A stretch of 60,000 nucleotides of DNA from Mobula hypostoma (GCF_963921235.1 NC_086107.1:94924001-94984000); one strand, 5' to 3'. Numbered from the stretch's first letter, positions 39,082 through 60,000 are shown. Made by a program: numbers and translations. The notes: generated from the sequence alone by a model not told the origin.

Positions 39082-40142
39082 CAGCGGATTCCAGTTAACT
39101 GGGCCATCGGTTAATCAGAGCAGACGCTTACTTAGACAACTTTTAAAGAACAAAAACTAACTGAGGAAATAGCAGTGATTCCCTTCACTTATTTGGGACA
39201 CTATGCTGCTTATCTGGGACAGGAGACTGTTGCCGAACAATTTCAAACTAGTGTCAGCTGTGTGTACTGTGTGGCTGTTAGATACTACACTGTGCTTTGA
39301 GTGAACAACTTTTAAATAGCAACACACATAAAAGTTGCTAGTGAACGCAGCAGGCCAGGCAGCATCTCTAGGAAGAGGTACAGTCGACATTTCAGGCCAA
39401 GACCCTTCGTCAGGACTTCGGTTAGTCCTCTTTCAGTTAGTCGACTGTACCTCTTCCTAGAGATGCTGCCTGGCCTGCTGTGTTCGCCAGCAACTTTTAT
39501 GTGTGTTGCTTGAAATTCCAGCATCTGCAGATTTCCTCGTGTTTGAACTTTTAAATAGTGTCAATTGCATGTTTAAAAAAATACTAGTTGTTGATAGTTG
39601 GCGAGAAATAAGTGGTTAGACAATTCAGAACTGTTTTGCTCACTGCAGTTTCAAGCAAACAGGCTTGGAGATGCCAGAAATGGCTGGGAGTCACAAAAGA
39701 AACAATTTCATGACCTCAGCAAGTTAGGAACTACAAAGAATTTGAAAGTATTGGCAAACATCATGAATGTTACAATGAAAATTTAGATTTTGAGGACACA
39801 ATCGTCAAAAGCATTGTATGAAGACATTCCATTATCTGCACTAGGTCTGCACTGATTTTGTTCCTTTACAGTCAAAGTAACATGGCAGTGTACACTGGGT
39901 GAATTCCTCTGTTGATAACTTTTAGGAACTAATACACAGTTTTATAGTGCTGTAGAAGTATTGATAGTGTTCTAATTTGTTCTGTGTTTCATTTAAGTAC
40001 TTAATCTGTTACTGAGTTAAACAGTAGGTTTTTTTTTATACCTTTTTAACTATTTCCATGAAATTTCAGGTAATTGGGGCAGCCGCTTAATTGGGTCAAA
40101 ACATACCAGTCCTGATGTGTCCCAATTAACCAGAATCCACTG
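39082..40142. mobile_element. Non-autonomous Tc1/pogo (Tigger-like) element inserted into CR1 ORF1
   Basis: TA duplicated at 39080-39081 and 40143-40144; 22-bp TIRs cagcggattccagttaactggg / cccaattaaccagaatccactg (4 mismatches); CR1 sequence continues on both sides. Confidence 0.85.
39320..39545. mobile_element. Second palindromic Penelope-derived insert of the same subfamily (hammerhead at ~39381-39417 minus; core deleted in the other arm)
   Basis: 13-bp TSD aacttttaaatag (39307-39319, 39546-39558); arms nearly identical to 26867-27167. Confidence 0.88.
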
Positions 40143-43100
40143 TACTTATTATTGAGGGGAATGGCCACAGGGTTACTCTCCTCTGACTGCCCAGTTCCTT
40201 TCCCTCTCCTAACAGTCACCCAGGTACCTGCCTCCTGTAATTTAAGGCGTCTACCTCCCTGTAGCTCCTAACTATCGCTTGCTCATTCTTCTGTACCAGT
40301 CTAAAGGTCATCGAGATACAGCTCCATTTCCTTAACACGGTCTCCGAGGAGCTGCAGCTCGATGCACTTCAGGTGAATGTAGTTATTAGGGAGACTGGAG
40401 GTCTCCCAAAGTTCCCACATCGCACACAAAGAACCTACCACTAACTCTGGACCCATTCTCAACACAGTGGCTATATACAAACGTTTGTACAATGGGGGGG
40501 GGGGTGGAAAACTTACTTAGAAGCTTTGCATGTGCTTGCCCAAGCCTGTTGGGGCAAAGCCTCCCTCTCTAACGCTGGTCCACTCCAACAAAGACCTACA
40601 ACACACAAAGAGTAGGAAGAACTCAGTGGGTCAAGCAGCAGCTGTGGGCAAAGTATCTCAACCTGAACTGTGGACTGCTTATTTCCCTTCACAGATGCTG
40701 CCTGACCTGCTGAGTTTTCTCCAGCATTTTGAGGGCTAATGCCCATCACAGCGATTATAGTAAGTGGAACTCAGGACCTGCATTGACAGAGCTCCTTTCA
40801 CATCCCTTTTGGAACAACTATACAGCCAATGAAGTACTTTTGAACTGTAACTGCCTTTGTGATGGAGTAAGTGTGGTCATCATTTTATGCACACCTTTCA
40901 ACGGACAGAGAGCTCCATTGATCTCCCTCTCTGCTGCCAGCCAAGTAGATACCAGGGCAGAGAATGGTCACAAAGCTCCCCATCCAGTAACTACTCATAT
41001 GCCAGGATCAAAAGTTTTGCTAAAACCGTGGTGAATGTCAGGGTCGAGCACTTATTATAGCAGGGGGTGAGTCGGGTATGGATATGACCAAGACTGGTCT
41101 GCTTGTCTGCACATGCTCTCTCTCAAACACACCCATCCCTTGCAACAAAGTTCATCACTCAGAGTAAATTTATTATCAAAGTACATATATGTTATCTCTG
41201 CTTTATTATCTTGTACATTATTATTCTGTATTTTATTATTACTCAAGTCTGCACACGGTTAAGTGTGTTTTTAAATGTTGCTCCTGTAACGAAAGAATTT
41301 CCTACTCAGGATCAATATTATTATATACTACCTTCAGATTCATTTTCTTGCAGACAATTACAGGGGAAAAAACTAAAAGAATTTACAAAAAACTACATAT
41401 AAACAAAGACTGTAACGAACAACTTATGTTCAAAAGACAAACTGTGCAAATAAAACATACGACACACAAAATGCTGGAGGAACTCAGCAGTTCAGACAGC
41501 ATCTAAGGAAATGAATGAACAAACAGTCCATATTTCAGGCTGAAAACCTTCTTCAGATCTGAAAAGGATGGGAAAAGATGCCAGAATAAAAAGGTGGGGG
41601 GGGGGTGAGAAAAGGGAAAGGAGGCTAGCTAGAAGGTGATAGGTGAAGCCAGGAGGGTGAGAAAGGTAAAGGGCTGGAGAGGAAGGAATCTGATAGCAGA
41701 GGTGACCATCAGAGAAAGGGGAGGAAGAGGGGACCCAGGGGGAGGTGATAAGCGGGAGAGAAGAGGTAAGAGACCATACTGGGGAATAGAAGAGGGGAGG
41801 GGGAGGGAATTTTTTTTTAAACCAGAAGGAGAAATCCATATTCATGCCAAGTTGGAGAGTATCTAGGTCGAACACAAGGTGTTGCTCCTCTGCCCCGAGT
41901 GTGGCCTCATCTTGGCACAAGAGGCAGCCCACGGACCAACATGTCAGAAAGCATGTGTTGTAAGAAGTCTCCAGTCATAGGGTGAGTTCAGAGCTGAGGT
42001 GAGTGAAGTTATCCACAATGGTTCAGGAACCTGATGGATGAAGGGTAATGACTGTTCCTGAACCTGGTGGTGTGGGATGCAAGATCATGTACCTCCCTCA
42101 TGGCCGTCTGATTGGTTCACTTACACACAATCCAGACACATCACTCTGTACACAAGCAGATGGGACTAGACTGGGTTTCAAAGTATAGGCAGCGTTTCCA
42201 AGCCGTGGACTCACAGGACTGTGCTAAAGCCTTAGGCACCCGAGATTTTTTTAATATGGTTTCAAATGGTATGGCCTTCACAGAGCCTTGATCACAGCAT
42301 GATCGTCTACATCATACAACGCAGCACATAACGATGATGACGACCAGCCCTATGCTGTCTGGCCCACTGTCTCTCTCTAATCCCACCAGTCACTGGGTCG
42401 CTGGCCCCACAGGTCTGTCCATGTTCAGGGACTGCTTCACTGTGATTAAGGTTCCTGATGCTGTGCTCTTTTCTTTTGGGGCAAGTAAGTATCTCCTCTT
42501 TACTGTAGGTAAGGAATAGAATCTTTTGGAAACCAAATGGATATTGCTATCCTGTGAAGGTCCCACCAGGAGGGAACTGTCATATTCAGCGCACAATGGT
42601 GACCTGATGAAGGGTCGCGGCCCAAAGTGTCGTCTGTTTACTTCCATCATAGATGCTGCCTGACCTGCTGAGTTAATCCAGCATTGGCCTCCTCTACTGT
42701 CGCAATGAGGCCACACTCAGATTGGAGGAGCAACACCTTATATTCCGTCTGGGTAGCCTCCAACATCGATTTCTTGAACTTCCGGTAATGCTGCCCCTTC
42801 ACCATTACCCATCCCCCTTTCCCTCTTTCACCTTTTCTCCTTGTCTACCGATCACCTCCCTCTGGTGCACCTCCCCCTTTCTTCGATAGCCTTCTGTCCT
42901 CTCCGATCAGACTCTCCCCTTCTCCAGCCTGTATCTCTTTCACCAACTTCCCAGCTCTTTACTTCATCCCTCCCCCTCCTGATTTCACCCATCACCTTGT
43001 GCTTCTCTCTCTCCTCCCCCACCTTTTAAATCTATTCCTCATCTTTTTGTCTCCAGTCCCGCTGAAGGATCTCGGCCTGAAACATCGACTCTGTACTCTT

Positions 43101-44431
43101 TTCCATAGACGCTGCCTGGCCTGCTCAATTCCTCCAGCATTTTGTTTGTGTTGCTCGGATTTCCAGCTCTGCAGACTTTCATTTTTTGTGTGTATTGAAC
43201 TGATGGTTTTATTGGCATTGATCACGGGTAATACTGGCCCAACCTCTGGGGAGAACAAAGAGGTTCTCCGCTCTCTGGGGAGAGCAGAGGCGATAGGGAC
43301 ACTCACAAGGTTTTCAGGTTGGTTTGTGAGTGCACAGGGAACAGAGGTATGGATCACACACAGGTGGAGGTTTAATTCAGCACCATGTTAAACACAGACA
43401 TTGTGTTCCAAAAGGCCTGTTCTTGCGCCGTACTAACCCGAGAGCCCCTTGTTTATCATCTCCTCCACCTGACAGGGACTCGCCCTCAGTCCTGCCTGCC
43501 TTGCAGTCCGACTCCTGAGCTGAGATAGTTGAACTTCAACCTGCACCCTCTTGTAATCAGGAGCCAGCACTTCCTTCCTGTTCCCAACCCACCCAGACAC
43601 CCGATTCCCATTTCCTTCAAAAACTGATTGCAAAATTAGGAAAAAGGAGTCTATAATGTCATGTTTTAGAGTGTGAAGTTGTATTGCTCTGGGCGGCAAG
43701 CTAATCTGAAGACCTCAAGAGCAGCTTCAGGCTGGGCGACGGAATCTGCACCCAGAGCGAGTTGCTGGACTCCGTGATCTCGGCCCGGGGCCTTTCGCAG
43801 CAGGTGCGAGGTACAATACGCTGTTCCGACAATTTAAACACCAGCCCACATCACAGGCCAGAACCGATTTCGCTCACTCTCCGTGATCTTCACTCCTCTC
43901 TCCAGAGCCCCCCGGAGCCTTTCACTGTTCCATCATTGGGTCAATTCAAAGTCTGGCTCAGAAAGACTGAAAAGACAGCGTGTCAGCCGGGATGAGAGCC
44001 GATTTCACTCACTCTCCGCGATGGTCATCATGACGCTGAGGCTGCGAAGACTGCCCTGGCGGCTGTGCTCCGTGCCCGCTAACATGATGAACTGATAATT
44101 GAGGCTTTGGGCCGCAGATCTGAAGGCTCAATTTTGATCCAGATTGTTCGCTTCAATTGTTTGCATGATTTTTTCTTTTCTTTCTCTTGCACATCGAGCG
44201 TGTCTTTTATTTTTATTCTTTTCTTTAAAATTGGGTTGTTTTGGGTTTCCTGCTTTGTGGCTACCAGTGAGCAAGCAAATCTCAAAGCTGTATAATTCAC
44301 ACATTCTTTGAAAATAAATGAAACTTGAATCTTTTAAATTAAAGTCATTAGAGCACAGAAACAGGCCCTTCAGCCCAACTGGTCCATACTAACCAGGATA
44401 TCTATCTGAGCTAGTTCCATGTTCCTCTAAA

Positions 44432-44510
44432 CCAGGCTTTCCCAACCTGCGGTCCATGGACCCCTCAATTAATGGTAGGGGTCCATGGCATAAAAAAAGT
44501 TGGGGCCCCT
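44432..44510. mobile_element. Very small palindromic hAT-like MITE
   Basis: caggctttcccaacc...gttggggcccct ends with internal hairpin ccatggacccct / aggggtccatgg; interrupts a CR1 3' tail. Confidence 0.5.
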
Positions 44511-44589
44511 TTTAATCTTTTCTATCCACATACCTGTCCAAGGATTTTTCAAATACAGTAATTGTACCTGCCTCTACAAGCTCGTTCCA

Positions 44590-45280
44590 TATACTTTATT
44601 GTCGCCAAACAATTGATACTAGAAAGTACAATCGTCACAGCAATATTTGATTCTGCGCTTCCCGCTCCCTGGATTACAAATCGATAGTAAATATTCAAAA
44701 TTTAAATTATAAATCATAAATAGAAAATAGAAAACTGGAAAGTAAGGTAGTGCAAAAAAAAAACCGAGAGGCAGGTCCGGATATTTGGAGGGTACGGCCC
44801 AGATCCAGGTCAGGATCCATTCAGCAGTCTTATCACAATTGGAAAGAAGCTGTTCCCAGATCTGGCCGTACGAGTCTTCAAGCTCCTGAGCCATCTCCCG
44901 GAGGGAAGAGGGACGAAAAGTGTGTTGGCTGGGTGGGTCGTGTCTGGGAGCACTGCTCCGACAGCGTGTGGTGTAAAGTGAGTCCAAGGACGGAAGATTG
45001 GTTTGTGTGATGTGCTGCGCCATGTTCACGATCTTCTGCAGCTTCTTCCAGTCTTGGACAGGACAACTTCCATACCAGGTTGTGATGCACCCTAGAAGAA
45101 TGCTTTCTATGGTGCATCTATAAAAATTAGTGAGGGTTTTAAGGGACAGGCCAAATTTCTTTAGTTTTCTCAGGAAGTAAAGGTACTGGTGGGCCTTCTT
45201 GGCAGTGGAATCTGCTTGGTTGGACCGTCAGGTCATTTGCGATATTGACCCCAAGGATCTTAAAGCTTTTGACCTGTGTG
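44590..45280 (-). mobile_element. Rex1-like LINE 3' fragment
   Basis: AQHITQTNLPSLDSLYT.RC; tail caattgtttggcgacaataaagtat. Confidence 0.75.
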
Positions 45281-46059
45281 AAAATGGTTGCCTTCCGATC
45301 TCCTTTTAAAGGTTTTTAATTTAGAGCTATTTATCATATGTATACTGAAACATACAGTGAAATGCGCCATAAGCGTCGAGAACCAACACAGCCCAACGAT
45401 GTACCTGGGGTAGCCACACATTCTGGTTCCAACACAGCATGCCTACAATGCTCGTCAGAACCACAGGGAACACAACAAGCAAGGGAACACAACAAGCAAT
45501 GAAACAACAACAGTGAAACAAGACACACCCAAACACAAAAACACACTGAGTTCTCTAACCCCAGGGCAGGCCCTCTTCAGCCTCCAGCCGACTCATGGAT
45601 TCACAAGACACCAGGCCCGAACTTCCCCAGCAGACTCAGTCTCCCTCAAACCTGTAACCTGTGCCCTCCAGTTTAAGATCCTCTACCCCAGGGTAAAGGC
45701 TTCATCTTATTTCTGGCCCTCATGTTTCGATGAGGGTCATCTCTCAGTCCCCTACGCTCCGGGGTAAAAAAAAGTCGCAGCCTAGATAGCCCCTGAAGTG
45801 CCAATAATATCCTCCTAAATATTTTCCTGCACCCTGTCCACCTTAGACTGCAGGACAGAGGACACTTTCCAATAGCTAAGGGATACATTTGGGAATAAGG
45901 TGAACAAAGATGCTTTGGAATGGGATTTTAAAGACAAAAATCCTCCAATACTTTACAGGAACAATTCGACACGAGTGGTGGTAGATTTTTAGAATAGTCC
46001 CCCCTCAAGGAATCGGTTATTTTAATCCTTCCCCCCTTTTTATTTAACCTTTGACCAGA

Positions 46060-46475
46060 GTGTTTGATGGGTCTGGGCCTATACCTGCCGGAGTTTAGAA
46101 AGGGCGGGGAAATCTCACATAACCTACAGAATATTGAAAGGCTTAGATAGAGTGGACGTGGAGAGGATGTTTCCTGTTGTGGGTGAGTCTAGGACCAGAG
46201 GGCACCATCTCAGAATAGAAGGCCATTCCTTGGAAACAGAGATGAGAAACAATTCCTTCAACCAGAGAGCGGTAAATCTGTGGAATTCATTACCACAGAC
46301 GAACGTGGAGGCCAAGTCATTGGGAATATTTAAAAGCGGCGGCTGATAGCTCTTCATTAGTCGGGGCGTCAAAGACTGAAGGAGGTTGGGGCTGAGAGGG
46401 AAAATAAAGCGGCCATGATGGAATGGCGGAACGGACTCGACGGGCCGAGCGACCTGATTCTGCTCCGATATCTTA
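46060..46475 (+). mobile_element. CR1 3' fragment
   Basis: KGLDRVDVERMFPVVGESRTRGH.LRI..FNQRAVNLWNSLPQ. Confidence 0.85.
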
Positions 46476-47090
46476 TCGACTTCCCCCCCAAACGCCAGGG
46501 GACCTCCGAGATAAATAAAAAAAAGTCCTGAGTTTAGATAGAAACGCCCAAGGAAATGAGCATCAGAAGAAACGAAAACTCGCTGGGAGTTCAACATAAA
46601 CTGTGGTGGTGTTTTTGGTCTGGAAAACACAGGGTCTCCTCTCTCTGACAATCCCGAAAATAAAAATCCACAAGCTTCACGCCGAGATGATCGAATTCAG
46701 CGGGGCATCACCAGCCCGTCCACAGAAAACAAACAAGCCTCTGCCATCATCACCCCCACCGCCAGCCGGGAACGACGATGTCGCAACTCCAGCCGAGATA
46801 TACACACATAAAAATCGTTAAACCTGAAAATCTGGTTTAATACTAGCTTCATTTCACCCGGACAGGCACTTTCCCCCACTCTTTCACTCCTAATCCCCCC
46901 ACCTCACCCCACACTCGTTTACTCAAACTTGCTTTCAATTGCAAGTTAAAATTTTACCTTTTTTTTCACGCAGGATTCGAGTGTTGGGAGAGAGAGAGAC
47001 GGGGGGGTGGTGGTGTTTTTTCCCCGATCCGAGTCTTTTTAAATAAAGCAATACCGGGGGAAAGAACTGTCTCAGGAGTACACAACTCAC

Positions 47091-47350
47091 CAGAAGTCGA
47101 GTGGTGGCGAATCCCGGATCAGGGATGAGAAACGGGTCGACTCCCAGCGCACTGTAAATCACTCTATTTCCTTCCTTTTTCGGGGAGGTCAGGTGGACAG
47201 GGAGGGAGGGAGGGAGGGATGAGAGAGAGACGAGCTCGCTGAGTGGATTCAACAAGTAAACTCAGCCGTCACGTGTGTGCTCTGCTTGCAGGTGGAGTTT
47301 CTCTTACAGCGCAAAGCGACCCGAATCACTCACTCACTCACTCTCACACA
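47091..47350 (-). promoter_or_regulatory. Candidate promoter and non-coding exon 1 of PRRG2 (donor after 47091)
   Basis: CpG-rich unique island (~46.5-47.4 kb) among repeats; strong donor CTG|gtgagt at 47091/47090; E-box CACGTG 47270-47275. The ATG exon has an acceptor, so an upstream exon is required. TSS not determined. Confidence 0.55.
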
Positions 47351-47689
47351 CCCTGAATTTTTTTAAACCTCGGATCTATGGATCGCCTGGACAATAGCAA
47401 GACCAACTTCAGGCTGCTGTTTATTGATTACCGCTCGTCATTCACCCGGCTGGTGGCGTAATGGCATCAGCATCGGACTTCGGGACGAAAGGTCTCATGT
47501 TCGAATCCAGCCAGCCGGCTCCCCTGCACACTTTCCATCCGTGCTGGGTTACGAGCTGGTGATCTCTTTGGAAACTCATCGTGCAGAGGCACGGAGGGAA
47601 ATCGTCCGCTAACCAGAGAAACTCCTGATGCGACATACCTTTCCTTCCTTCCTTCAGTCCAACACCAGCATACCCTCAGCTCCAAAACC

Positions 47690-48213
47690 TGGGTCAAACT
47701 CCCAAACTGGATCCTTGGGTTCCCTCACCGGGAGACCACAGTCTATGTGAATCGGAAATAACGTCTCCTCCTCGCTGACAAACAACACTAGTGCACCTCG
47801 GTGATGGGTGCTTAGCCTACTGGTCTTCTGTCTTTACACCTAGAATTTCTGTCTTTACACCTAGAACTCAAACGCCACACAGCTATTGTTGGCAGTATTT
47901 CAGACGGAGACGAGGAGGCATAGAGGAACAAGATAGATCAGCTGTTGAGTGGTGCTGCAGAACAACCTTGCACTCAACGTCAGTAAGTCCAAGGGAAACT
48001 GATAGTGGATTTCAGAAAGGAGAAGTTAAGGGAACGTACACCCGTCCTGATCGAGAGATCAGCAGTGGAAAGGGTGAGCAGTTTCAAGTTCCTGAGTGTC
48101 AATATCTCCAAGGATCTGTCCTGGGCCCAACGTATTGATGCAGTTACAAAGAAGGCATGACACCAACGATATTTCATTAGGAGTTTGAGGAGATTTGGTA
48201 CGTCAGCAAAGTC
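47690..48213 (+). mobile_element. Older Rex1-like LINE fragment, continuing at ~49470-49850 and ~52504-52600 (host of two later insertions)
   Basis: RT-like DNA (gtggaaagggtgagcagtttcaagttcctg); downstream pieces match the family 3' end also seen at 14470-15070. Confidence 0.7.
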
Positions 48214-49462
48214 ACTCATAGTCATAGTCATACTTTACTGATCCCGGGGGAAATTGGTTTTTGTTACAGTTGCACCATAAATAATTAAATAGTAATAAAA
48301 CCATAAATAATTAAATAGTAATATGTAAACTATGCCAGGAAATAAGTCCAGGACCAGCCTATTGGCTCAGGATGTCTGACCCTCCAAGGGAGGAGTTGTA
48401 AAGTTTGATGGCCAAGGCAGGAAGGACTTCCTATGATGCTCTGTGTTGCATCTCGGTGGAATAAGTCTCTGGCTGAATGTACTCCTGTGCCCAACCAGTA
48501 CATTATGTAGTGGATGGGAGACATTGTCCAAGATGGCATGCAACTTGGACAGCATCCTCTTTTCAGACACCACCGTCAGAGAGTCCAGTTCCATCCCCAC
48601 AACATCACTGGCCTTATGAATGAGTTTGTTGATTCTGTTGGTGTCTGCTACCCTCAGCCTGCTGCCCCAGCACACAACAGCAAACATGATCGCACTGGCC
48701 ACCACAGACTTGTAGAATATCCTCAGCATCGTCCGGCAGATGTTAAAGGACCTCAGTCTCCTCAGGAAATAGAGATGGCTCTGACCCTTCTTGTAGACAG
48801 CCTCAGTGTTCTTTGATCAGTCTATTGTCAATTCGTATCCCTAGGTATTTGTAATCCTCCACCATGTCCACACTGACCTCCCGGATGGAAACAGGGGTCA
48901 GCGGTACCTTAGCTCTCCTCAGGTCTACCACCAGCTCCTTAGTCTTTTTCACATTAAGCTGCAGATAATTCTGCTCACACCATGTGACAAAGTTTCCTGC
49001 CGTAGCCCTGTACTCAGCCTCATCTCCCTTGCTGATGCATCCAACTATGGCAGAGTCATTAGAAAACTTCTGAAGATGACAAGACTCTGTGCAGTAGTTG
49101 AAGTTCAAGGTGTAAATGGTGAAGAGGAAGGGAGACAAGACCGTCCCCTGTGGAGTCCCAGTGCTGCTGATCACTCTGTCGGACACAGTGTTGCAAGCAC
49201 AAGTACTGTGGTCTGCCAGTCAGGTAATCAAGAATCCATGACACCAGGAAAGCATCCACTTGCATCGCTGTCAGCTTCTCCCCCAGCAGAGCAGGGTGGA
49301 TGGTGTTGAACGCACTGGAGAAGTCAAAAACATGACCCTCACAGTGCTCGCTGGCCTGTACTGGTGGGCGTAGACACGGTTCAGCAGGTAGATGATGGCA
49401 TCCTCAACTCCTAGTCGGGGCTGGTAGACAAACTGGAGGGGATCTAAGTGTGGCCTGACCAT
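48214..49462 (-). mobile_element. Rex1/Babar-clade LINE, 5'-truncated, frameshifted RT
   Basis: LDPLQF.YQP..GVEDAI; STGTPQGTVLSPFLFTIYT; LQKFSNDSAIVG; LQLNVKKTKELVVD; YKYLG; FYKSVVASAI.FAVVCWG; (ctatga)n tail at 48214-48232. Confidence 0.9.
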
Positions 49463-49859
49463 AAATTTGTGACCTCACAAATTTCTACATACTGGTATGG
49501 GGAGGGGGGGGGGCCACAGCACGGGATCAGTAAAAGCTGTAGGAAGTTGTAAACTCAACCTGCTCCACCATGGCCACCAGCCTCCCAAAAATCCTGGACA
49601 CCTTCAGAAGGTGAACCCTCAAAAATGCGGCATCCATCATTAAGGACCCCCATTACCCAAGACGTGGCCTCTTTTCATTGCTACCATTAAGGAGTCTGAA
49701 GGCACACGCTCAATGTTTTGGGAACAACTTCTTCCCCCCAACCTCCCCACCGCCATCAGATTTGTGAACAGACAATGTACCCATGTACACTACCTCACTA
49801 TTTTTTCTTCTCCTTTTGTGCTACTTATTTAACTTATTTTGAAATTATTTCTCCTTTGA

Positions 49860-52503
49860 GACGTAGAGTCAGTATGGATAGAACTGAGAAATTCTAAGGG
49901 TAGAAAGACCCTAATGGGAGTTATCTACAGGCCCCCAAACGGTAGTCTGGATGTAGGGTGTATGTTGAATCAAGAGTTAAAATTGGCATGTCGCAGAGGT
50001 AATGCTACAGTTGTTATGGGGGATTTCAACATGCAGGTAGACTGGAGGAATCAGGTTGGTACTGGACCCCAAGAAAGGGAGTTTGTGGAGTCCCTCCGAG
50101 ATGGATTCAGCACAGCTTGTACTGGAGCCTACCAGAGAGAAGGCAATTCTAGATTTAGTGTTGTGCAATGAACCGGATTTGATCAGGGACCTCGAGGTAG
50201 AGGAGCCATTAGAAGGTAGTGACCATAATATGATAAGTTTTAATCTACAATTTGAGTGGGAGAAGGGAAACTCAGAAGTGTCAATACTACAGTTGAACAA
50301 AGGGAATTATGGTGCTATGAGGGAGGAGCTGGCCAAAGTTCAACAATACCCTAGCAGGGATGACAGTGGAACAGCAGTGGCAAGTGTTTCTGGGAATAAT
50401 GCGGAAGGTGCAGGATCAGTTCGTTCCAAAGAGGAAGAAAGATCCTAAGGGGAGTAAGGGGAGGTCGTGGCTGACAAGAGAAGTAATGGACAGTATAAAA
50501 ATAAAAGAGAAGAAGTATAACATAGCAAAGATGAGTGGGAAGCCGGAGGATTGGGAAACTTTTAAAGAGCAACAGAAGGTAACTGAAAAGGCAATACACC
50601 GAGAAAAAATGGGGTAAGAAGGTAAACTAGCCAAGAATATAAAGGAGGATAGTAAAAGCTTCTTTAGGTATGTGAAAAGGAAAAAAATTATTAAGACTAA
50701 AATTGGACCCTTGAAGACAGAAACGGGTGAATTTATTATGGGGAACAAGGAAATGGCAGACGAGTTGAACGGGTACTTTGAATCTGTCTTCACTAGGGAA
50801 GACACAAACAATCTCCCAGATATAATAATGGCCAAAGGACCTAGGGTAATGGATGAACTGAAGGAAATTTATATTAGGCAGGAAATGGTGTTGAATAGAC
50901 TGTTGGGTCTAAAGGCTGATAAGTCCCCGAAACCTGATGGTCTGCATCCCAGGGTACTTAAGGAGGTGGCTTTAGAAATCGTGGATGCATTGGTAATCAT
51001 TTTCCAATGCTCTATAGATTCAGGATCAGTTCCTGTGGATTGGAGGGTGGCTAATGTTGTCCCTCTTTTCAAGAAGGGAGGAAGAGAGAAAACAGGGAAT
51101 TATAGACTGGTTAGCCTGACGTCAGTGGTGGGAAAGATGGTGGAGTCAATTATAAAAGATGGAATTACGACACATCTGGATAGCAGAAACAGGATCGGTC
51201 CAAGTCAACATGGATCTACGAAGGGGAAATTGTGCTTGACTAATCTTCCAGAATTTTTTGGGGATGTAACTATGAAAATGGACAAGGGAGAGCCAGTGGA
51301 TGTAGTGTACCTGGACTTTCAGAAAGCCTTTGATAAAGTCCCACATAGGAGATTAGTGGGCAAAATTAGGGCACATGGTATTGGGGGCAGAGTACTGACA
51401 TGGATTGAAAATCGGCTGGCTGATAGAAAACAAAGAGTAGCGATTAATGGGTCCCTTTCGGAATGGGAGGCGGTGACCAGTGGGGTACCTCAGGGTTCAG
51501 TGCTGGGACCGCAGCTGTTTACAATATATATTAATGATTTAGATGAGGAAATTAAAAGTAACATTAGCAAATTTGCAGATGACACAAAGCTGGGTGGCAG
51601 TGTGAAATGTGAGGAGGATGTTATGAGAATGCAGGGTGACTTGGACAGGCTGGGTGAGTGGGCAGATGAATGGCAGATGCAGTTTAATGTGGATAAATGT
51701 GTGGTTATCCACTCTGGTGGTAAGAACAGGAAGGCAGATTATTATCTAAATGGAGTCAAGTTAGGAAAAGGGGAAGCACAACGAGATCTAGGTGTTCTTG
51801 TACGTCAGTCACTGAAAGCAAGCATGCAAATACAGCAGGCAGTGAAGAAAGCTAATGGCATGCTGGCCTTCATAACAAGGGGAATTGAGTATAAGAGCAA
51901 AGAGGTCCTTCTGCAGCTGTACAGGGCCCTGGTGAGACCACACCTGGAGTACTGTGTGCAGTTTTGGTCTCCAAATTTGAGGAACGACATTCTTGCTATT
52001 GAGGAAGTACAGCATAGGTTCACAAGGCTAATTCCCGGGATGGCAGGACTGTCATATGTCAAAAGATTGGAGCGACTGGGCTTGTATACTCAGGAATTTA
52101 CAAGGCTGAGAGGTGATCTTATTGAAACATATAAGATTATTAAGGGATTGGACACACTGGAGGCGGGAAGCATGTTCCAGCTGATGGGTGAGTCCAGAAC
52201 CAGAGGCCACAGTTTAAGAATAAGGGGTAGGCCATTTAGAACGGAGTCGAGGAAAAACTTTTTCACCCAGAGAGTGGTGGATATGTGGAATGCTCTGCCC
52301 CAGAAGGCTGTGGAGGCCAAGTCTCTGGATGCTTTCAAGAAAGAGATGGATAGAGCTCTTAAAGATAGTGGAATCAAAGGTTATGGGGATAAGGCGGGAA
52401 CTGGATACTGATTGTGGATGATCAGCCATGATCACAGTGAATGGCAGTGCTGGCTGGACGGGCCCAAATGGCCTACTCCTGCACCTATTGTCTATTGTCT
52501 ATT
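49860..52503 (+). mobile_element. Young 5'-truncated CR1 LINE: disrupted endonuclease region + uninterrupted 579-aa RT/C-terminal ORF (50672-52411)
   Basis: GVIYRPPN, GDFN and GSDHN endonuclease motifs; RT motifs LDFQKAFDKVPH, GVPQGSVLGP, FADDTK, RPHLEYC; 3' tail (ctattgt)n at 52484-52503; stop at 50615-50617 and frameshifts upstream. Confidence 0.97.
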
Positions 52504-53433
52504 CTTGTAATTTATAGATTTTTATTCAATATACCGCTGCCTCAAAACAACAAATTTCACAATGTATGCCAGTGATATTAAACCTAATTCCGATTCTAAT
52601 TCTGGTTTGAGTTCGAGAGCTGCAAGGTCTTGTTGGAGCTCCATAAGACTCTGGTTAGACCACACTTAAAATAATCGTGTTCAGCTTCAATATAGGAAGG
52701 ATGAGGACACTTTAGAGAAGATTCAGACAAGATTTACCAGGATGCTGCCTGGATTAAAGAGCGTGGCTTACGAGGATAGGTTGAGTGAGCTCAGGCTTTT
52801 CTCCTTCGAGCAAAGGACGATAAGAGGTGATTCGATAGAGGTGTATAAGATGACAAAAGGTATACTGTAGATCACCAGAGACACAAGAAAATCCAGTGAA
52901 GGGTCTCGGCCCGAAACATCGATTGTGTACTCTTTTCCATAGATGCTGCCTGGCCTGCTGAGTTCCTCCAGTATTTTGTGTGCATTGCTACAGTAACCAG
53001 AAACCTTTTCCAAGGGTGGAAATGGCTAATACAAGGGGGCATTATTTCAAGGAGGAAAGTACAGTGTGTATGTCGGAGGTAAGTTCTTTACACAGAGAGT
53101 AGTGGGTGCATTGAACATGCTGCCGGGGTGGTAGAGGTAGATAACTTAGGAACATTTAACTAACTTTTGGATAGGCACATGGATGGTAGAAAAGTTGGGT
53201 TGGGGGGTATATAGGAGGGAAGTGTTAGATTGATCTTAAAGTAGGTTAAAAAGTCAACACAACATTGTGGGCTGTATTGTAAATTCGATGTTCTGTGTTT
53301 ATACTATCTGTGGCTCTGATAGTTCTAGATCAAGAGGTACAGGAACAGAATCACATCTTCTTTAAAGTTTACCCCACTCACTTTAAACAAATGTCCTCTA
53401 GACATCTCTACCCTGAGAGAAACATTCTGACTC

Positions 53434-53722
53434 GGAACAGAGGGACCTTGGCATATGAGGATAGGACACACACACATTGAATAGTGGGGAGTGTCGAGGA
53501 GCAGAGGGACCTCAGCGTTCAAGAATAGGACACACACTGTAAATGGTGGAAAATGTTGAGTGGTCAGAGGAACCTCAGTGTACAAGGGTAGGACACACCG
53601 TGAATGGTGGGGAATATTGAGAAAGAGAGGAACCTCGGTGTACGAGAGTAGGACACACACCGTGAATGGTGGGGTGGGTGTATTGAGGAACAGAGGGAAC
53701 TCGGTGTACAAGGGTCAGAGAC
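53434..53722 (+). repeat. Minisatellite, ~4.5 copies of a 60-66 bp unit resembling a CR1 RT segment
   Basis: Recurring cagagg(g/a)acctc.gtgtacaagggtaggacacac(ac)cgtgaatggtgggg; similar to the CR1 region encoding YTVNG...EQRDLG (compare 17600-17670). Confidence 0.7.
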
Positions 53723-53840
53723 ACCCTACAATCATAGTGAGGACAGTTTACTGAGTGTAGACTGACCCCTTTTCCTCAGATCCCTCCCTTTCTGTGTGCA
53801 GATAAGAATATGAAGACACAGCCGGCTAGGTGGACAATCG

Positions 53841-53846
53841 TTTAAT
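53841..53846 (-). terminator. Candidate polyA signal (ATTAAA) of the repeat-protein gene
   Basis: cttacATTAAAcgattgtcc about 95 nt after the stop, followed by a GT/T-rich tract (ctgtgtcttcatattctt). Confidence 0.5.
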
Positions 53847-53938
53847 GTAAGAGGAAGGGGGTGTGGGGATGAGGAGGAGATGTGGAGGGGGGGTGGGGTC
53901 AAGGTTCCCAAGATGAGTCCCTTCACTGCCAGGCAGGG

Positions 53939-56900
53939 TCAGCGTGGGGCTCCCTGTGCCCGGAGCCCCCTCTGTTTCAGGAGGTCTCGGGCCCTCCCTA
54001 CCCCTGCAAAATAGAGGGTTGCCCAGAAGTGCCTGTCATCCTGGGGGACCCGCATCAGCTCGCTGTCTGTCACTTCCCTCCGTTGCCCCCGACCCATCTG
54101 CGGGTGGAGGATGCCAAAGAGAACATCCTCAGGGTCCGGGGGCAAACGGGGCACCTGTCTCTGTGGGTCCTCTGTGCCTGTCACCAGCACCTGTTCCCTT
54201 GTAGGTTCTTTGCTTGTGGTGATGGCCTCTGCATTGTAAACATCTCTGCCCATAGCCACACCTTCTTTGGTTAGAGACTCTTTGCCTGTAGCTGAAACCT
54301 GTTCATAAGATGGTTCTTTGCCTGTAGTGAGAATTTTTGCATAATAGATGTCTTCACTTGTAGGCAGTGATAGTTCATCAGGGGAATCTCTGCCTGTAGC
54401 TGTATCCTGTCCAGTTAGAAACTTTTCACCTGTAAATACACCCTGTTTGGTATCAGATTCTTTGCTTGCAGCTGAAGTCCATTCATAAGGCAATTCTTTG
54501 CTTGTAGCTACATCCTGTTCAATTATAAACTCTTTACCTGTAGCTTGAGCCTGTTCATAAGGGGATTCTTTGCCTGCAGATGCATCCAGATGATTTAGAA
54601 ACTCTTCACCTGTAACTGTACTTTGTTCAGAAGTGGAGTCTCCATGTGTAGCCACATCATGTTCATTCAGAGATTCTTCGCCTGTAGATGATGCCTGTTC
54701 ATAAGTCAAGTCTCCACTTTTAGCCACATCTTGTTCAGTTAGAGACTCTTTGCTTGTAACTGTAGTTTGTTCATAAGTGGATTCTCCACCTGTAGCTACA
54801 TCCTGTTCCATTAGAGTCTCTTCACCTGCAGCTGATGTCTGTTCATTAGTAGAGTCTCCACCTGTATCTGCATCCATGTTAATTAGAGACTCTTTGCCTG
54901 TAGTTGATGCCTGTTCATAAGTCAAGTCTTCACCTGTAGCTAGTGTCTGTTCATAAATGGAGTCTCCACCTGTAGCTACATCCTGTTCAGTTAAAGCCTC
55001 TTCGGCTGTAGCCGATGCCTGTTCATAAATGGAGTCTCCACCTGTAGCTACATCCTGTTCAGTTAAAGCCTCTTCGGCTGTAGCCGATGCCTGTTCATAA
55101 ATGGAGTCTCCACCTGTAGCTTTATCCTGTTCAGTTAGAGATCCTTCACCTGAAACTGTAGTTTGTTCATAAGTGGATTCTCCTTCTGCAGCTAGTGTCT
55201 GTTCATAAATTGAGTCTTCACCTGTAGCTACATCCTGTTCAGTTAAAGCCTCTTCGGCTGTAGCCGATGCCTGTTCATAAATGGAGTCTCCACCTGTAGC
55301 TTTATCCTGTTCAGTTAGAGATCCTTCACCTGAAACTGTAGTTTGTTCATAAGTGGATTCTCCTTCTGCAGCTAGTGTCTGTTCATAAATTGAGTCTTCA
55401 CCTGTAGCTACATCCTGTTCAGTTAGAGACTCTTCAGCTGTAGCTGATGCCTGATCATAAGTCAAATCTCCACCTGTAGCTAGTGTCTGTTCATAAATGG
55501 AGTCTCCACCTATAGCTACATCCTGTTCAGTTAGAGACTCTTCGGCTGCAGCTGATACCTGTTCATAAGTGGAGTCTCCACCTGTAGCTTTATCCTGCTC
55601 AGTTAGAGATTCTTCATCTGTAACTGTAGTTTGTTCATCAGTGGATTCTCCACCTGCAGCTAGTGTCTGTTCATAAATGGAGTCTCCACCTGTAGCTACA
55701 TCCTGTTCAGTTAGAGACTCTTCACCTGTAGCTGATGCCTGATCATAAGTCAAATCTCCACCCCTAGCTTTATCCTGTTCAGTTAGAGATTCTTCACCTA
55801 TAACTGCAGTTTGTCCATAAGTGGATTCTCCATCTGTAGCTAGTGTCTGTTCATAAGTGGAGTCTCCACCTGTAGCTATATCATGTCCAATTAGAAGCTC
55901 TTCACCTGTAGCTGCTGGCTGTTCATAAGTGGATTCTCCACCTGTAGCTGCATCCTGTTCAGTTACAGACTCTTTGACTGTTGTTGCTGCCTGTTCATAA
56001 GTGGAGTCTCCACCTGTAGCTACATCCTGTTCAGTTAGAGTCTCTTCTACAGTTGCTGATAGCTGTTCGTAAGTGTATTCTCCACCTGTAGCTACATCCT
56101 GTTCTGTTAGAGACTCTTCACTTGTAGCGAGTGTCTGTTCATAAGTGTATTCTCCACCTGTGTCCACAATCTGTTCAGTTAGAGATGCTTCACCTGTATC
56201 AGAAGCCAGCTCATTAAGAGATTCTTCACCTGTTTTAATATCCTGTTCAGTTAGAGACTCTTTGCCTGTACCTAAAACCTGTCCATATGAGGAATTTTCA
56301 CCTATAGTCAGGATCTCTGCATAATCAGTTTCCTTGCCTGTAAGTGTTGATTGTTCATAAAGGGAATTTCCAGCTGGAGCTGGAGGCTGTTCAGTTGGAG
56401 ATTCCCCACCTGAGGTCAGGTCCTTTTCATCTGAGGATTCTTTGCTTGTAGTCAGAATCTCTGCATAAAAAGCACCTTTGTCTGTGGTCAGGGCCTGTTC
56501 ACTTGTGGAAATTTCACCAGTAGCTAGAGCCTGTTTATATGGGAATTCTTCACCTGCATAACTGAAATCTTCATCTGCAGTCAGGGCCTGTTCAGATGGA
56601 GGTTCTCCACCAGAATTCTGGATCTCTGCGTAAGATGTGTCTTCACCTATACTCAGAGTCTGTTCACCTGTGGGTTCTTCACCTGAATATATTGTCTGTT
56701 CTTCTGTAAATTCTTCACTTGAAGGTATGGCCTGTTCATCTACAAATTCATCGCCTGAAGATATGGCCTGTCCACCTTTAAGTTCTTCACTTGGAAATAT
56801 GGCCTGTTTGCCTATAGATCCTTCACCTGAAAATATGGTCTGTTCACCTGTGGGTTCTTCACCTGAAGATATGGTCTGTTCAACTGTTGATCCTGCACCT

Positions 56901-59900
56901 GAAGATATGGTTTGTTCAACTGTTGATCCTTCATCTGAAGATATGGTTTGTTCATGTATGTTGATAGATTCATCACCTGAAGATCCATCATGTTCATCTG
57001 TGTATTCTTCACCTGAAGATATGGCCTGTTCACCTGTAAGTTCTTCACCTGAAGATACATCATGTTCACCTATAGGTCCTTCACCTGAAGATGTGTTCTG
57101 TTCACCTGTAGGTTCTTCACCTGAAGATATGGTCTGTTCAACTGTTGATCCTTCACCTGAAGATATAGTCTGTTCAACTGTGGGTTCCTCAACTGAAGAT
57201 ATGGTCTGTTCAACTGTTGATCCTTCATCTGAAGATATGGTCTGTTCTCCTGTAGATTCTCCACCTGAAGATAAGGTCTGTTCACCTGTAGGTTCTTCAC
57301 CTGAAGATATGGTCTGTTCACCTGTGGGTTCTTCACCTGAAGATATGGTCTGTTCACCTGTGGGTTCTTCACCCAAAGATATGGTCTGTTCACCTGTGGG
57401 TTCTTCACCCAAAGGTATGGTCTGTTCTCCTGTGGGTTCTTCACCTGAAGATATGTTCTGTTCAACTGTTGATCCTTCATCTGAAGATATGGTTTGTTCA
57501 TGTATGTTGGTAGATTCATCACTTGAGGATCTATCATGTTCATCTGTGTATTCTTCACCCGAAGATATGGCCTGTTCACCTGTAGGTTCTTCACCTGAAG
57601 ATACATCATGTTCGGCTATAGGTCCTTCTCCTGAAGATATGGTCTGTTCACCTGTGGGTTCTTCACCTGAAGATATGGTCTGTTCAACTGTCGATCCTTC
57701 ATCTGAAGATATGGTCTGTTCACCTGTAGGTTCTTCACCTGAAGATATGGTCTGTTCACCTGTAGGTTCTTCACCCGAAGATATGGTCTGTTCACCTGTA
57801 GGTTCTTCACCTGAAGATAGGGTATGTTTACCTGTAGGTTCTTCACCTGAAGATATGGTCTGTTCACCTGTAGGTTCTTCACCTGAAGATATGGTCTGTT
57901 CAACTGTCAATCCTTCAGCTGAAGATATGGTCTGTTCACCTCTAGGTTCTTCACCTGAAGATATGGTCTGTTCAACTGTCGATCCTTCACCTGAAGTTAT
58001 GGTTTGTTCAACTGTCGATCCTTCATCTGACGATATGGTCTGTTCTCCTGTAGATTCTACACCTGAAGATATGGTCTGTTCACCTGTAGGTTCTTCACCT
58101 GTAGATATGATCTGTTCAATTGTTGATCCTTCAGCTGAAGATATGTTCTGTTCAACTGTCGATCCTTCACCTGAAGATATGGTCTGTTCATGTTTGCTGG
58201 TAGATTCATCACCTGAAGATCCATCATGTTCATCTGTGTATTCTTCACCTAAAGATATGGCCTGTTCACCTGTGGATACTTCACCTGAAGATATGGTCTG
58301 TTCACCTGTGGGTTCTTCACCCAAAGATATGGTCTGTTCACCTGTGGGTTCTTCACCTGAAGATATGGTCTGTTCAACTGTCGATCCTTCACCTGAAGAT
58401 ATGGTCTGTTCATCTGTGGGCTCTTCATCTGAAGATATGGTCTGTTCAACTGTCAATCCCTCACCTGAAGATATGGTCTGTTCAACTGTCGATCCTTCAC
58501 CTGAAGATATGGTCTGTTCAACTGTCGATCCTACACCTGAAGATATAGTCTGTTCAACTGTCGATCCTTCACCTGAAGATATGTGTTGTTCTCCTGTAGA
58601 TTCTCCACCTGAAGATACGGTCTGTTCACCTGTAGGTTCTTCACCTGAAGATATGGTTTGTTCAACTGTCGATCCTTCAGCTGAAGATAGGGTATGTTCA
58701 CCTGTAGGTTCTTCACCTGAAGATATGGTCTGTTCACCTGTGGGTTCTTCACCTGAAGATATGGTCTGTTCAACTGTCGATCCTACACCTGAAGATATGG
58801 TCTGTTCAACTGTCGATCCTTCACCTGAAGATATAGTTTGTTCCACCGTCGATCCTTCACCTGAAGATATGGTCTGTTCTCCTGTAGATTCTCCACCTGA
58901 AGATATGGTCTGTTCACCTGTAGATTCTTCACCTGAAGATATGGTCTGTTCACCTGTAGGTTCTTCACCTGAAGATATGGTCTGTTCAACTGTCGATCCT
59001 TCAGCTGAAGATAGGGTCTGTTCACCTGTAGGTTCTTCACCTGAAGATATGGTTTGTTCAACTGTCGATCCTTCATCTGACGATATGGTCTGTTCTCCTG
59101 TAGATTCTACACCTGAAGATATGGTCTGTTCACCTGTAGGTTCTTCAACTGAAGATATGATCTGTTCAACTGTTGATCCTTCAGCTGAAGATATGTTCTG
59201 TTCAACTGTCGATCCTTCACCTGAAGATATTGTCTGTTCATGTTTGCTGGTAGATTCATCACCTGAAGATATGGTCTGTTCACCTGTGGGTTCTTCACCC
59301 AAAGATATGGTCTGTTCACCTGTGGGTTCTTCACCTGAAGATATGGTCTGTTCAATTGTCGATCCTTCACCTGAAGATATAGTTTGTTCAACTGTTGATC
59401 CTTCACTTGAATATGTGGTCTGTTGAACTGTCAATCCCTCACCTGAAGATATGGTCTGTTCAACTGTCGATCCTTCATCAGAAGATATGGTCTGTTCACC
59501 TGTAGGTTCTTCACCTGAAGATATGGTCTGTTCAACTGTTGATCCTTCACCTGAAGATATGGTCTGTTCAACTGTTGATTCTACACCTGAAGATATAGTC
59601 TGTTCAACTGTCGATCCTTCACCTGAAGATATGTGTTGTTCTCCTGTAGATTCTCCACCTGAAGATACGGTCTGTTCACCTGTAGGTTCTTCATCTGAAG
59701 ATACAGTCTGTTCACCTGAAGATATGGTTTGTTCAACTGTCGATCCTTCAGCTGAAGATAGGGTATGTTCACCTGTAGGTTCTTCACCTGAATGTATGGT
59801 CTGTTCACCTGTAGGTTCTTCATCTGAAGATAGGGTCTGTTCACCTGTAGGTTCTTCATCTGAAGATATGGTCTGTTCACCTGTAGGTTCTTCACCTGAA

Positions 59901-59998
59901 GATATGGTCTGTTCACCTGTAGGTTCTTCACCTGAAGATATGCTCTGTTCAACTGTCGATCCTTCACCTGAAGATATGGTTTGTTCAACTGTCGATCC
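53939..59998 (-). CDS. 3' part of an unidentified giant acidic 12-aa tandem-repeat protein (N-terminus outside window)
   Basis: The 1831-aa track ORF starts at a TTG; the same frame appears stop-free to the window edge (~2,020 codons). The frame stays open through strongly diverged repeats and a unique ~75-aa C-terminus while the other frames close. TGA at 53939-53941. Confidence 0.85.
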   Translation of the reverse strand, partial: GSTVEQTISSGEGSTVEQSISSGEEPTGEQTISSGEEPTGEQTISSDEEPTGEQTLSSDEEPTGEQTIHSGEEPTGEHTLSSAEGSTVEQTISSGEQTVSSDEEPTGEQTVSSGGESTGEQHISSGEGSTVEQTISSGVESTVEQTISSGEGSTVEQTISSGEEPTGEQTISSDEGSTVEQTISSGEGLTVQQTTYSSEGSTVEQTISSGEGSTIEQTISSGEEPTGEQTISLGEEPTGEQTISSGDESTSKHEQTISSGEGSTVEQNISSAEGSTVEQIISSVEEPTGEQTISSGVESTGEQTISSDEGSTVEQTISSGEEPTGEQTLSSAEGSTVEQTISSGEEPTGEQTISSGEESTGEQTISSGGESTGEQTISSGEGSTVEQTISSGEGSTVEQTISSGVGSTVEQTISSGEEPTGEQTISSGEEPTGEHTLSSAEGSTVEQTISSGEEPTGEQTVSSGGESTGEQHISSGEGSTVEQTISSGVGSTVEQTISSGEGSTVEQTISSGEGLTVEQTISSDEEPTDEQTISSGEGSTVEQTISSGEEPTGEQTISLGEEPTGEQTISSGEVSTGEQAISLGEEYTDEHDGSSGDESTSKHEQTISSGEGSTVEQNISSAEGSTIEQIISTGEEPTGEQTISSGVESTGEQTISSDEGSTVEQTITSGEGSTVEQTISSGEEPRGEQTISSAEGLTVEQTISSGEEPTGEQTISSGEEPTGKHTLSSGEEPTGEQTISSGEEPTGEQTISSGEEPTGEQTISSDEGSTVEQTISSGEEPTGEQTISSGEGPIAEHDVSSGEEPTGEQAISSGEEYTDEHDRSSSDESTNIHEQTISSDEGSTVEQNISSGEEPTGEQTIPLGEEPTGEQTISLGEEPTGEQTISSGEEPTGEQTISSGEEPTGEQTLSSGGESTGEQTISSDEGSTVEQTISSVEEPTVEQTISSGEGSTVEQTISSGEEPTGEQNTSSGEGPIGEHDVSSGEELTGEQAISSGEEYTDEHDGSSGDESINIHEQTISSDEGSTVEQTISSGAGSTVEQTISSGEEPTGEQTIFSGEGSIGKQAIFPSEELKGGQAISSGDEFVDEQAIPSSEEFTEEQTIYSGEEPTGEQTLSIGEDTSYAEIQNSGGEPPSEQALTADEDFSYAGEEFPYKQALATGEISTSEQALTTDKGAFYAEILTTSKESSDEKDLTSGGESPTEQPPAPAGNSLYEQSTLTGKETDYAEILTIGENSSYGQVLGTGKESLTEQDIKTGEESLNELASDTGEASLTEQIVDTGGEYTYEQTLATSEESLTEQDVATGGEYTYEQLSATVEETLTEQDVATGGDSTYEQAATTVKESVTEQDAATGGESTYEQPAATGEELLIGHDIATGGDSTYEQTLATDGESTYGQTAVIGEESLTEQDKARGGDLTYDQASATGEESLTEQDVATGGDSIYEQTLAAGGESTDEQTTVTDEESLTEQDKATGGDSTYEQVSAAAEESLTEQDVAIGGDSIYEQTLATGGDLTYDQASATAEESLTEQDVATGEDSIYEQTLAAEGESTYEQTTVSGEGSLTEQDKATGGDSIYEQASATAEEALTEQDVATGEDSIYEQTLAAEGESTYEQTTVSGEGSLTEQDKATGGDSIYEQASATAEEALTEQDVATGGDSIYEQASATAEEALTEQDVATGGDSIYEQTLATGEDLTYEQASTTGKESLINMDADTGGDSTNEQTSAAGEETLMEQDVATGGESTYEQTTVTSKESLTEQDVAKSGDLTYEQASSTGEESLNEHDVATHGDSTSEQSTVTGEEFLNHLDASAGKESPYEQAQATGKEFIIEQDVATSKELPYEWTSAASKESDTKQGVFTGEKFLTGQDTATGRDSPDELSLPTSEDIYYAKILTTGKEPSYEQVSATGKESLTKEGVAMGRDVYNAEAITTSKEPTREQVLVTGTEDPQRQVPRLPPDPEDVLFGILHPQMGRGQRREVTDSELMRVPQDDRHFWATLYFAGVGRARDLLKQRGLRAQGAPR

Positions 59999-60000
59999 TT
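54200..60000. repeat. Coding 36-bp minisatellite (homogeneous ~56.7-60 kb; diverged, partly 72-bp periodic ~54.2-56.7 kb)
   Basis: Plus-strand unit cacctgaagatatggtctgttcacctgtaggttctt and variants repeated without spacers. Confidence 0.97.

Follow-up and report, generated by a model that had tools for sequence, protein, structure and literature searches.

A giant acidic repeat frame upstream of PRRG2 in the devil ray Mobula hypostoma: a candidate terminal exon for a disordered polyanionic protein

Can a tandem repeat of several kilobases be the coding end of a gene, and if so, what kind of protein would it encode? This question is raised by a 60,000-nucleotide stretch of the Mobula hypostoma genome (GCF_963921235.1, NC_086107.1:94924001-94984000; hereafter the window), whose last 6 kb form one giant open frame on the minus strand. 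An earlier sequence-only reading had described an uninterrupted frame of ~2,020 codons, had estimated from its length that it comprised roughly 160 units of 12 amino acids (aa), and had proposed a proteoglycan core or a mineralisation phosphoprotein. Following up this reading, we consider it likely that the frame is a real coding exon. Frame and composition appear to have been kept, individual residues have not, and our leading, though tentative, overall reading of the product is an extracellular, modified polyanion.

Structure and composition of the open frame

The minus strand from 59998 to 53939 is one frame without interruption, 2019 codons long and closed by a stop codon, as the sequence-only reading had seen. 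It is open on its 5' side at the window end, which lies inside a repeat array, and the N-terminus and any 5' exons lie beyond base 60000. The frame falls into four parts.

53939..59998, minus strand: open frame, candidate terminal coding exon, stop codon TGA at 53941-53939
56660..59998, minus strand: N array, aa 1-1113, ~92 units of 12 aa, consensus SSGE(E/G)(P/S)T(G/V)EQTI
56195..56659, minus strand: transition, aa 1114-1268, degenerate 12-mers that gain Tyr and Lys and lose SSG
54179..56194, minus strand: C array, aa 1269-1940, 56 12-mers in perfect register
53942..54178, minus strand: non-repeat tail, aa 1941-2019 (79 aa), ending at the TGA

The count of ~161 units (~92 + ~13 + 56) agrees with the earlier estimate, and so does the composition, which had been called rich in E/S/T/G/Q and poor in basic residues and Cys (E 17.4, S 15.0, T 14.2, G 12.2 and Q 7.4 %; K+R 2.5 %; Cys 0). 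The part of the protein within the window has a mass of 209 kDa, a net charge of about -393 and a computed pI of ~4. It contains no transmembrane segment, the highest 19-residue Kyte-Doolittle mean being 0.28. The product would be an extended polyanionic chain that is intrinsically disordered.

Tandem Repeats Finder reports a period of 36 nucleotides (nt) for 56658-59723 (84.5 copies, 82 % matches), and the N array also displays a higher-order duplication, with a marker ...DEST(S/N)(K/I)HEQTI... seen four times. The N array is 34 % S+T and contains 63 Ser-Gly, of which 53 are followed by E or D, together with 73 S-x-E, 154 [ST]-x-E and 165 [ST]-x-x-[ED] motifs and four N-x-S/T sequons in 1113 aa. 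For the whole frame the counts are 68 Ser-Gly (56 followed by E or D) and 83 S-x-E. Ser-Gly occurs at most once per 12-aa unit and never in consecutive runs. The Ser-Gly-acidic and S-x-E motifs of the sequence-only reading are therefore present, though its statement that most N-proximal units carry SSGE(E/G) was too broad: the exact motif is found in 43 of the ~92 units, just under half, and SS followed by G, D, A or V in 79.

The C array is built differently. Two unit types alternate, near GEESLTEQDVAT and GGDSIYEQTLAT (G-E-E-S-L-T-E-Q-D-V-A-T / G-G-D-S-I-Y-E-Q-T-L-A-T), and form a distinct Tyr-rich unit of 24 aa (2 x 12) in the C-terminal third of the protein; Tandem Repeats Finder gives periods of 72, 180 and 288 for 54503-56270. 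Ser-Gly is found just 3 times in these 672 aa, with 24 Tyr followed by Glu or Asp and 91 [ST]-x-x-[ED] motifs. The last ~12 units have each diverged with the frame kept. The tail is slightly basic (K+R 16.5 % vs E+D 13.9 %) and GC-rich (65 % vs ~43 % in the arrays). An alignment-free AlphaFold2 model of the last 200 aa has low-confidence short helices only (mean pLDDT 47) and is too poor for a fold search.

Integrity of the frame

Over 54200-59998 the minus frame contains no stop codon, and the other five frames contain 38, 72, 108, 148 and 264. This holds for the diverged part (54200-56657) as well, where the minus frame is open over all 819 codons and each other frame has 37-91 stops; it is this part that decides the strand. 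Inside the 36-nt array the count needs more care, as the consensus unit is stop-free in three of the six frames (minus ISSGEESTGEQT, minus YLQVKNLQVNRP and plus VCSPVDSSPEDM). In a simulation that placed 335 random substitutions on a perfect 36-nt array, ~17 stops were expected per stop-free frame and none of 2000 runs was free of stops, with the caveat that the 335 substitutions observed are not independent, since copies share them. The observed numbers of stops in the three consensus-open frames are 0 in the main minus frame, 14 in the other minus frame (16.5 expected) and 1 in the plus frame. When synonymous codons were redrawn with either protein held fixed, the opposite frame received 1.2 or 1.9 stops; because each open frame can be the other's by-product, the 36-nt array alone cannot tell the strand.

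Length changes point in the same direction as the stops. Compared with a perfect array, the 36-nt array carries indels of -15 and one +6 variant in four copies, all multiples of three, and the C array shows neither a register shift nor an indel across 56 consecutive 12-mers (aa 1269-1940). A kept frame and composition with residues that are not kept is the pattern of coding minisatellites for disordered domains. We posit that selection would hold the frame open and maintain its composition (E/S/T/G/Q, no Cys, scarce K/R) rather than single residues, and that the exon, encoding at least 2019 disordered polyanionic residues, may have grown by unequal-crossover expansion of the 12-aa unit.

Another repeat of the window also produces open frames. 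At 7630-8200, a simple purine/pyrimidine repeat has long open frames in several frames on both strands (PLSPSPPLPLSPS... / GERGRGGEGERG...), which shows the ease with which repeats make open frames; none of its stop-free frames exceeds ~140 aa.

Comparison with a sister species and with sequencing runs

Contigs of runs X5, X6, X7 and X9 were compared with the window over 36601-56600. Run X9 comes from a sister species (organism B) that shares 0.40 of the 31-mers of the window. Organism A is represented by four small runs, X5-X8 (86-241 million contig letters), which share 0.60-0.89 of the words and whose label as possible RNA is a guess. Organisms C-H share 0.10-0.13 of the words and stayed outside the contig comparison.

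Over 53644-54861 and 56011-56600 (1808 nt), the contigs of the sister species differ from the window by 29 other letters and 4 gap letters; for its six single-copy intergenic contigs of the compared stretch (3579 nt) the numbers are 60 and 80. Substitution rates are thus 1.6 % in the frame vs 1.7 % in intergenic DNA, and gap letters are ~10 times rarer in the frame. This contrast is an independent hint that the frame is protected against length changes.

Contigs of organism A are identical to the window (0 other letters) over 53691-54960 (X5), 53804-54976 (X6) and 54059-54849 (X7). They run colinearly across two GT positions considered as splice donors (54155 and 54190), and those of X5 and X6 also cross the stop, X7 stopping short of it. 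No spliced form leaving the array is seen in these contigs over 53691-54976, and no contig joint touches 53.9-56.6 kb among the matches listed (15, with 5420 more), in tables dominated by transposon copies. Depth in X5 and X6 is 12-36 over the frame vs 2.7-9.7 over unique flanks, with no excess in X7; contig depth cannot rank regions, and we do not take it as evidence. The contigs of organism A are likewise not counted as proof of expression, because DNA or pervasive transcripts are present in those runs.

Gene end and genomic neighbourhood

The frame is probably a terminal exon. This is the simplest reading because it ends at a natural stop, is followed by a poly(A)-signal-like hexamer and has no recognisable exon between it and PRRG2.

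53841..53846, minus strand: ATTAAA, putative poly(A)-signal-like hexamer, 93 nt past the stop codon and the first one there

The next such hexamer on the minus strand is AATAAA at 52521-52526. The two candidate donors, at 54190 and 54155, were rejected: both are the recurrent CAG/GT of Glu-Gln-Val, with a poor match to the splice consensus. In a Pfam scan of the 300 longest minus-strand open reading frames (ORFs) of 1-53938 (>= 46 aa; 308 reached 45 aa), no lectin, CCP, EGF or transmembrane exon was found in the 26 kb downstream of the frame, in line with the earlier remark that it ends without the lectin/CCP modules of lecticans. Besides the PRRG2 Gla exon (25419-25622, E 1.6e-16), the scan returned transposon domains alone, namely reverse transcriptase, ALKBH8_N (of the LINE ORF type), Tc1/Sleeping-Beauty helix-turn-helix (HTH) and DDE fragments. 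Among 150 of the 175 plus-strand ORFs (>= 47 aa) of 26-56.7 kb, Pfam matched one LINE reverse transcriptase and one borderline APS-kinase-like sequence. The frame may accordingly be described as a candidate 3'-terminal coding exon of >= 6.06 kb. The devil-ray gene to which it would belong, on the minus strand, is unannotated and would lie ~27 kb upstream of PRRG2.

PRRG2 had been named as the neighbour, and it is. Its membrane-span exon matches 11 proteins, all from NCBI and named 'transmembrane gamma-carboxyglutamic acid protein 2', the best being that of Mobula hypostoma at 100 % identity; further matches come from other cartilaginous fishes, among them a stingray, a sawfish, a skate and several sharks. 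All 211 residues of this protein map at 100 % identity onto six minus-strand exons, from the Met at 26635 to 10300.

26635-26528, 25601-25437, 18934-18899, 14299-14171, ~13851-13678 and 10326-10300, minus strand: PRRG2 coding exons, 100 % identical to the NCBI protein

PRRG2 begins ~27 kb downstream of the giant frame on the same strand, with transposon-rich DNA and no recognisable exon between them. The possibility that the frame is itself an exon of PRRG2 is ruled out, as the complete protein is accounted for by the six exons.

Several other elements of the window were noted. A minisatellite of 60-63 nt with ~3.9 copies lies at 53470-53712, from ~230 nt past the stop of the giant frame, and its edge, at 53691, is where the X5 contig stops. 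A LINE copy on the plus strand (50618-52411), lying between the giant frame and PRRG2, retains an intact ORF of 597 aa with RVT_1 (E 3e-31), and its family is abundant, with very high contig depth in all compared runs. Matches of the ALKBH8_N type on the minus strand at 44622-45227 and 48370-48816 (E 5e-11 and 1.7e-10) stand beside reverse-transcriptase fragments and most likely represent the C-terminal region of LINE ORF2 copies, not a cellular ALKBH8 gene. The borderline APS-kinase match (PF01583; 22.0 bits vs a cut-off of 21.1, E 1.8e-4) lies on the plus strand at 27560-27868, in GC-rich sequence just upstream of the first coding exon of PRRG2; its P-loop looks degenerate, and the match is spurious or comes from a fragment of a pseudogene. 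At 783-1425 on the minus strand lie remnants of a Tc1/Sleeping-Beauty-type transposase (HTH_SB, E 7e-15; HTH_Tnp_Tc3_2).

Search for relatives

The sequence-only reading had recognised no orthologue, and the database searches agree with it in finding neither a family nor an orthologue. In Pfam the frame drew DUF3046, without a qualifying stretch, and CTD7, below threshold, both of which we take as composition artefacts. No match was obtained in PDB, and in the ESM Atlas the best score was 0.75 for the whole frame, with no usable match for the tail. Word-indexed searches with aa 1100-1960 (protein lengths 1110-3534) and with the last 420 aa (protein lengths 231-735) returned no relative. When the last 1200 aa were compared by phmmer with 1.84 billion representatives, 54 matches at 17-48 % identity came up, the best having an E-value of 1.8e-22 at 21 % identity. 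The five that were inspected are unrelated repeat proteins, including a Tudor-domain protein with CNVPNNKDFTG repeats, a bacterial TPR-like protein and a kinase with SSSPEPT repeats, and none of the 54 has its best stretch on the tail. Keyword searches and searches for two repeat-unit motifs found no published description of the protein (bioRxiv supplements and non-CC papers being outside their scope).

The frame is also missing from the protein collection searched, and was either not annotated or masked as a repeat. It is probably the end of an unannotated, lineage-restricted gene without detectable relatives.

Comparison with known families

The frame is of a known kind, in that it resembles the coding minisatellites of acidic disordered, mucin- or proteoglycan-like domains; a function as a proteoglycan or in mineralisation is a hypothesis. 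One of the closest formal likenesses is to the chondroitin-sulphate (CS) exon of aggrecan, which is also a very large single exon, rich in E/S/T/G, free of Cys, disordered and regularly set with Ser-Gly in acidic context. Aggrecan has ~120 Ser-Gly in one exon of ~4 kb (PMC4859157), compared with 68 in the 6 kb of the frame in the window. The frame differs from it in having a 12-aa unit, no sequence similarity, a C-terminal third that is nearly free of Ser-Gly, and a stop without G3 modules. In hyalectans, a C-terminal lectin-binding region (EGF, C-type lectin, CCP) comes after the glycosaminoglycan (GAG) domain (PMC4859157); here the frame stops at 53939-53941 and is followed by Gla and transposon domains only. 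The central giant exon with its many Ser-Gly matches hyalectans in form, glycanation being predicted from sequence. Hyalectans also have Ig and link modules that bind hyaluronan at the N-terminus, which for this frame would lie beyond base 60000. Homology is likewise lacking, given the phmmer result (best E 1.8e-22 at 21 % identity, the five inspected matches unrelated). Lectican identity was rejected on both grounds, the missing lectin/EGF/CCP region in the 26 kb downstream and the lack of homology.

The PTS domains of mucins are similar in being coding minisatellites of near-identical units with a kept frame and poorly kept residues, and the N array approaches them in its S+T content of 34 %. 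Unlike mucins, the frame has 3.7 % Pro and 22 % E+D. In gel-forming and membrane mucins the repeats are flanked by vWD, SEA, Cys-knot or transmembrane modules, and no exon for any of these lies downstream of the frame. Proteins of the SCPP/SIBLING type are acidic Ser-x-Glu phosphoproteins with a signal peptide, for example dentin phosphoprotein, and their genes sit in the SCPP cluster. The frame shares with them its extreme acidity, the density of S-x-E (the N array has 73) and the location of the repeats in a last exon, and is unlike them in showing no homology, no Ser-Asp runs and no tie to mineralised tissue, and in having PRRG2 alongside. The earlier mineralisation reading finds no support other than the S-x-E count. 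Serglycin has consecutive Ser-Gly repeats (PMC4859157), unlike the frame with its Ser-Gly once per 12-aa unit and never in runs, and we do not assign the frame to this family.

Proposed nature of the product

We posit that the product enters the secretory pathway by way of an N-terminus beyond the window. With ~60 Ser-Gly-acidic sites per 1100 residues, many Ser and Thr, and Tyr in acidic context, it might then be glycanated, O-glycosylated, phosphorylated or sulphated; if secreted, it should carry GAG, O-glycan, phosphate or sulphate. Acidic-flanked Ser-Gly is the accepted context for glycanation (PMC4859157). The modified product would be an extended brush that binds water and cations, acting like the aggrecan CS exon or a mucin domain and unrelated to either. 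By analogy, the frame may thus work like a GAG or mucin domain. A more specific version is possible but doubtful: an independently evolved, lineage-restricted proteoglycan- or mucin-like core of > 200 kDa, forming an aggrecan-CS-like brush, without lectican modules or known relatives, and possibly the core of a polyanionic gel or secretion of rays. The gel of electrosensory organs has been characterized as a mucin-like keratan-sulphate glycopolymer, and the passages of the review consulted do not name its core protein (PMC6425839). A link between the frame and this glycopolymer of the ampullae would be speculation only.

A number of observations weigh against a secreted, coding interpretation. 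A signal peptide or N-terminal domain would lie out of view, as the window ends inside the array, and a Pro content of 3.7 % is low for a classical mucin domain. No homologue came from Pfam, PDB, the ESM Atlas, the word-indexed searches or the phmmer scan, and the frame has no self-match in a collection that does contain the NCBI PRRG2 of Mobula hypostoma. At the residue level, purifying selection does not stand behind the coding claim: comparisons between units give a dN/dS of 0.72 for the N array and 0.95 for the C array, pN/pS of two recent duplicate pairs is 0.5 and 1.8 (uninformative), and entropy per codon position shows no third-position peak (N array 2.95/6.33/5.13, C array 10.95/11.19/10.87). 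Since residues are not visibly constrained, the coding claim is drawn from the integrity of the frame. Within the 36-nt array, the plus- and minus-strand frames are equally open. Compared with the window, 4 letters are missing from the sister species at some place within 53644-54861, a stretch that includes 295 nt past the stop; if these were one event within the coding part (53939-54861), the frame of that species would be broken. The runs with a guessed RNA label contain single-copy intergenic DNA as well, at low depth, and no run is on record as RNA.

Much of this would be expected of a non-coding 36-nt minisatellite, possibly within an untranslated region, an intron or a non-coding transcript, that had expanded and was open only through descent from a stop-free unit. 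The dN/dS of ~0.7-0.95, the flat entropy profile, the consensus unit that is stop-free in 3/6 frames, the lack of homologues, of annotation in the searched collection and of a recorded RNA run, and a substitution divergence in the sister species equal to that of intergenic DNA are all compatible with it. What makes this explanation rather improbable is that the 819 diverged codons stay open where all other frames have 37-91 stops, that the consensus-open sister frame gained 14 stops and the main frame none, that 56 diverged units follow each other without a register shift, that gap letters are ~10 times rarer than in the flanking unique DNA of the sister species, and that after the last repeat the frame continues through 79 codons of GC-rich unique sequence up to its stop codon. 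A coding array could also be read from the other strand, where a frame of 930 aa would be the gene and the minus frame its shadow.

56634..59426, plus strand: antisense shadow frame, 930 aa, units VCSPVDSSPEDM, open only inside the 36-nt array

This frame has 1 stop in the 36-nt array vs ~17 expected, the minus frame averages 1.9 stops when the plus protein is fixed and synonymous codons are redrawn, and contigs do not tell the strand. The plus frame is broken at 59424-59426, the part 54200-56657, free of stops in the minus frame, has 37-60 in every plus frame, and Pfam shows no nearby plus-strand exon besides the reverse transcriptase and the one borderline match. The minus frame, in turn, is 2019 codons long and takes in the non-repeat tail, and we give a plus-strand gene next to no credence.

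If the minus frame is coding, the place of its product still has to be weighed. CK2, a cytosolic and nuclear kinase, prefers S/T-x-x-E/D. Because SSGEE also fits its S-x-x-E pattern, motifs cannot separate a matrix protein from an intracellular acidic protein, and the exon might encode a nuclear, nucleolar or cytoskeleton-associated disordered protein, multiply phosphorylated in the manner of CK2 substrates and serving as an entropic spacer or as a sink for basic proteins or cations. The frame evidence speaks for such a protein as much as for a secreted one, and its 165 (N array) and 91 (C array) [ST]-x-x-[ED] sites, the lack of Cys, the few N-glycosylation sequons (4 in 1113 aa), the low Pro and a slightly basic tail that ends without an anchor would suit it. 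Nothing ties it to an intracellular family, as Pfam, PDB, the Atlas and phmmer are empty, and both the regular spacing of Ser-Gly-acidic sites and the richness in E/S/T/G are reminiscent of GAG-bearing exons (PMC4859157); we regard an intracellular location as unlikely. Membership in a known extracellular family, as the CS exon of an aggrecan/versican-type lectican paralogue or as an SCPP/SIBLING mineralisation phosphoprotein, is suggested by the one giant exon with its 68 Ser-Gly and 83 S-x-E, and is very improbable. The frame stops, the 26 kb that follow contain no exon for EGF, C-type lectin or CCP modules, and the 1.84 billion representatives yielded nothing beyond repeat-composition matches to unrelated proteins (17-48 % identity). 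HAPLN or SPARCL1-type genes are the neighbours expected for lecticans and SCPP genes, and the neighbour here is PRRG2.

Implications

If not translated, the locus would be an ordinary large minisatellite with an unusual and unexplained lack of frameshifts. If the frame is translated, as we think likely, its product would be among the largest proteins of the genome, and yet missing from an annotation-derived collection that contains the neighbouring PRRG2. Repeat masking plausibly hides such genes, and catalogues of matrix and secretory proteins of cartilaginous fishes may miss the most anionic proteins of this kind. A translated frame would also be an example of the convergent origin of an aggrecan-like domain, and its product, a Cys-free brush with a net charge of about -400 and ~60 Ser-Gly-acidic sites, would suggest itself as the core of a hydrogel or of a lubricating, ion-binding secretion.

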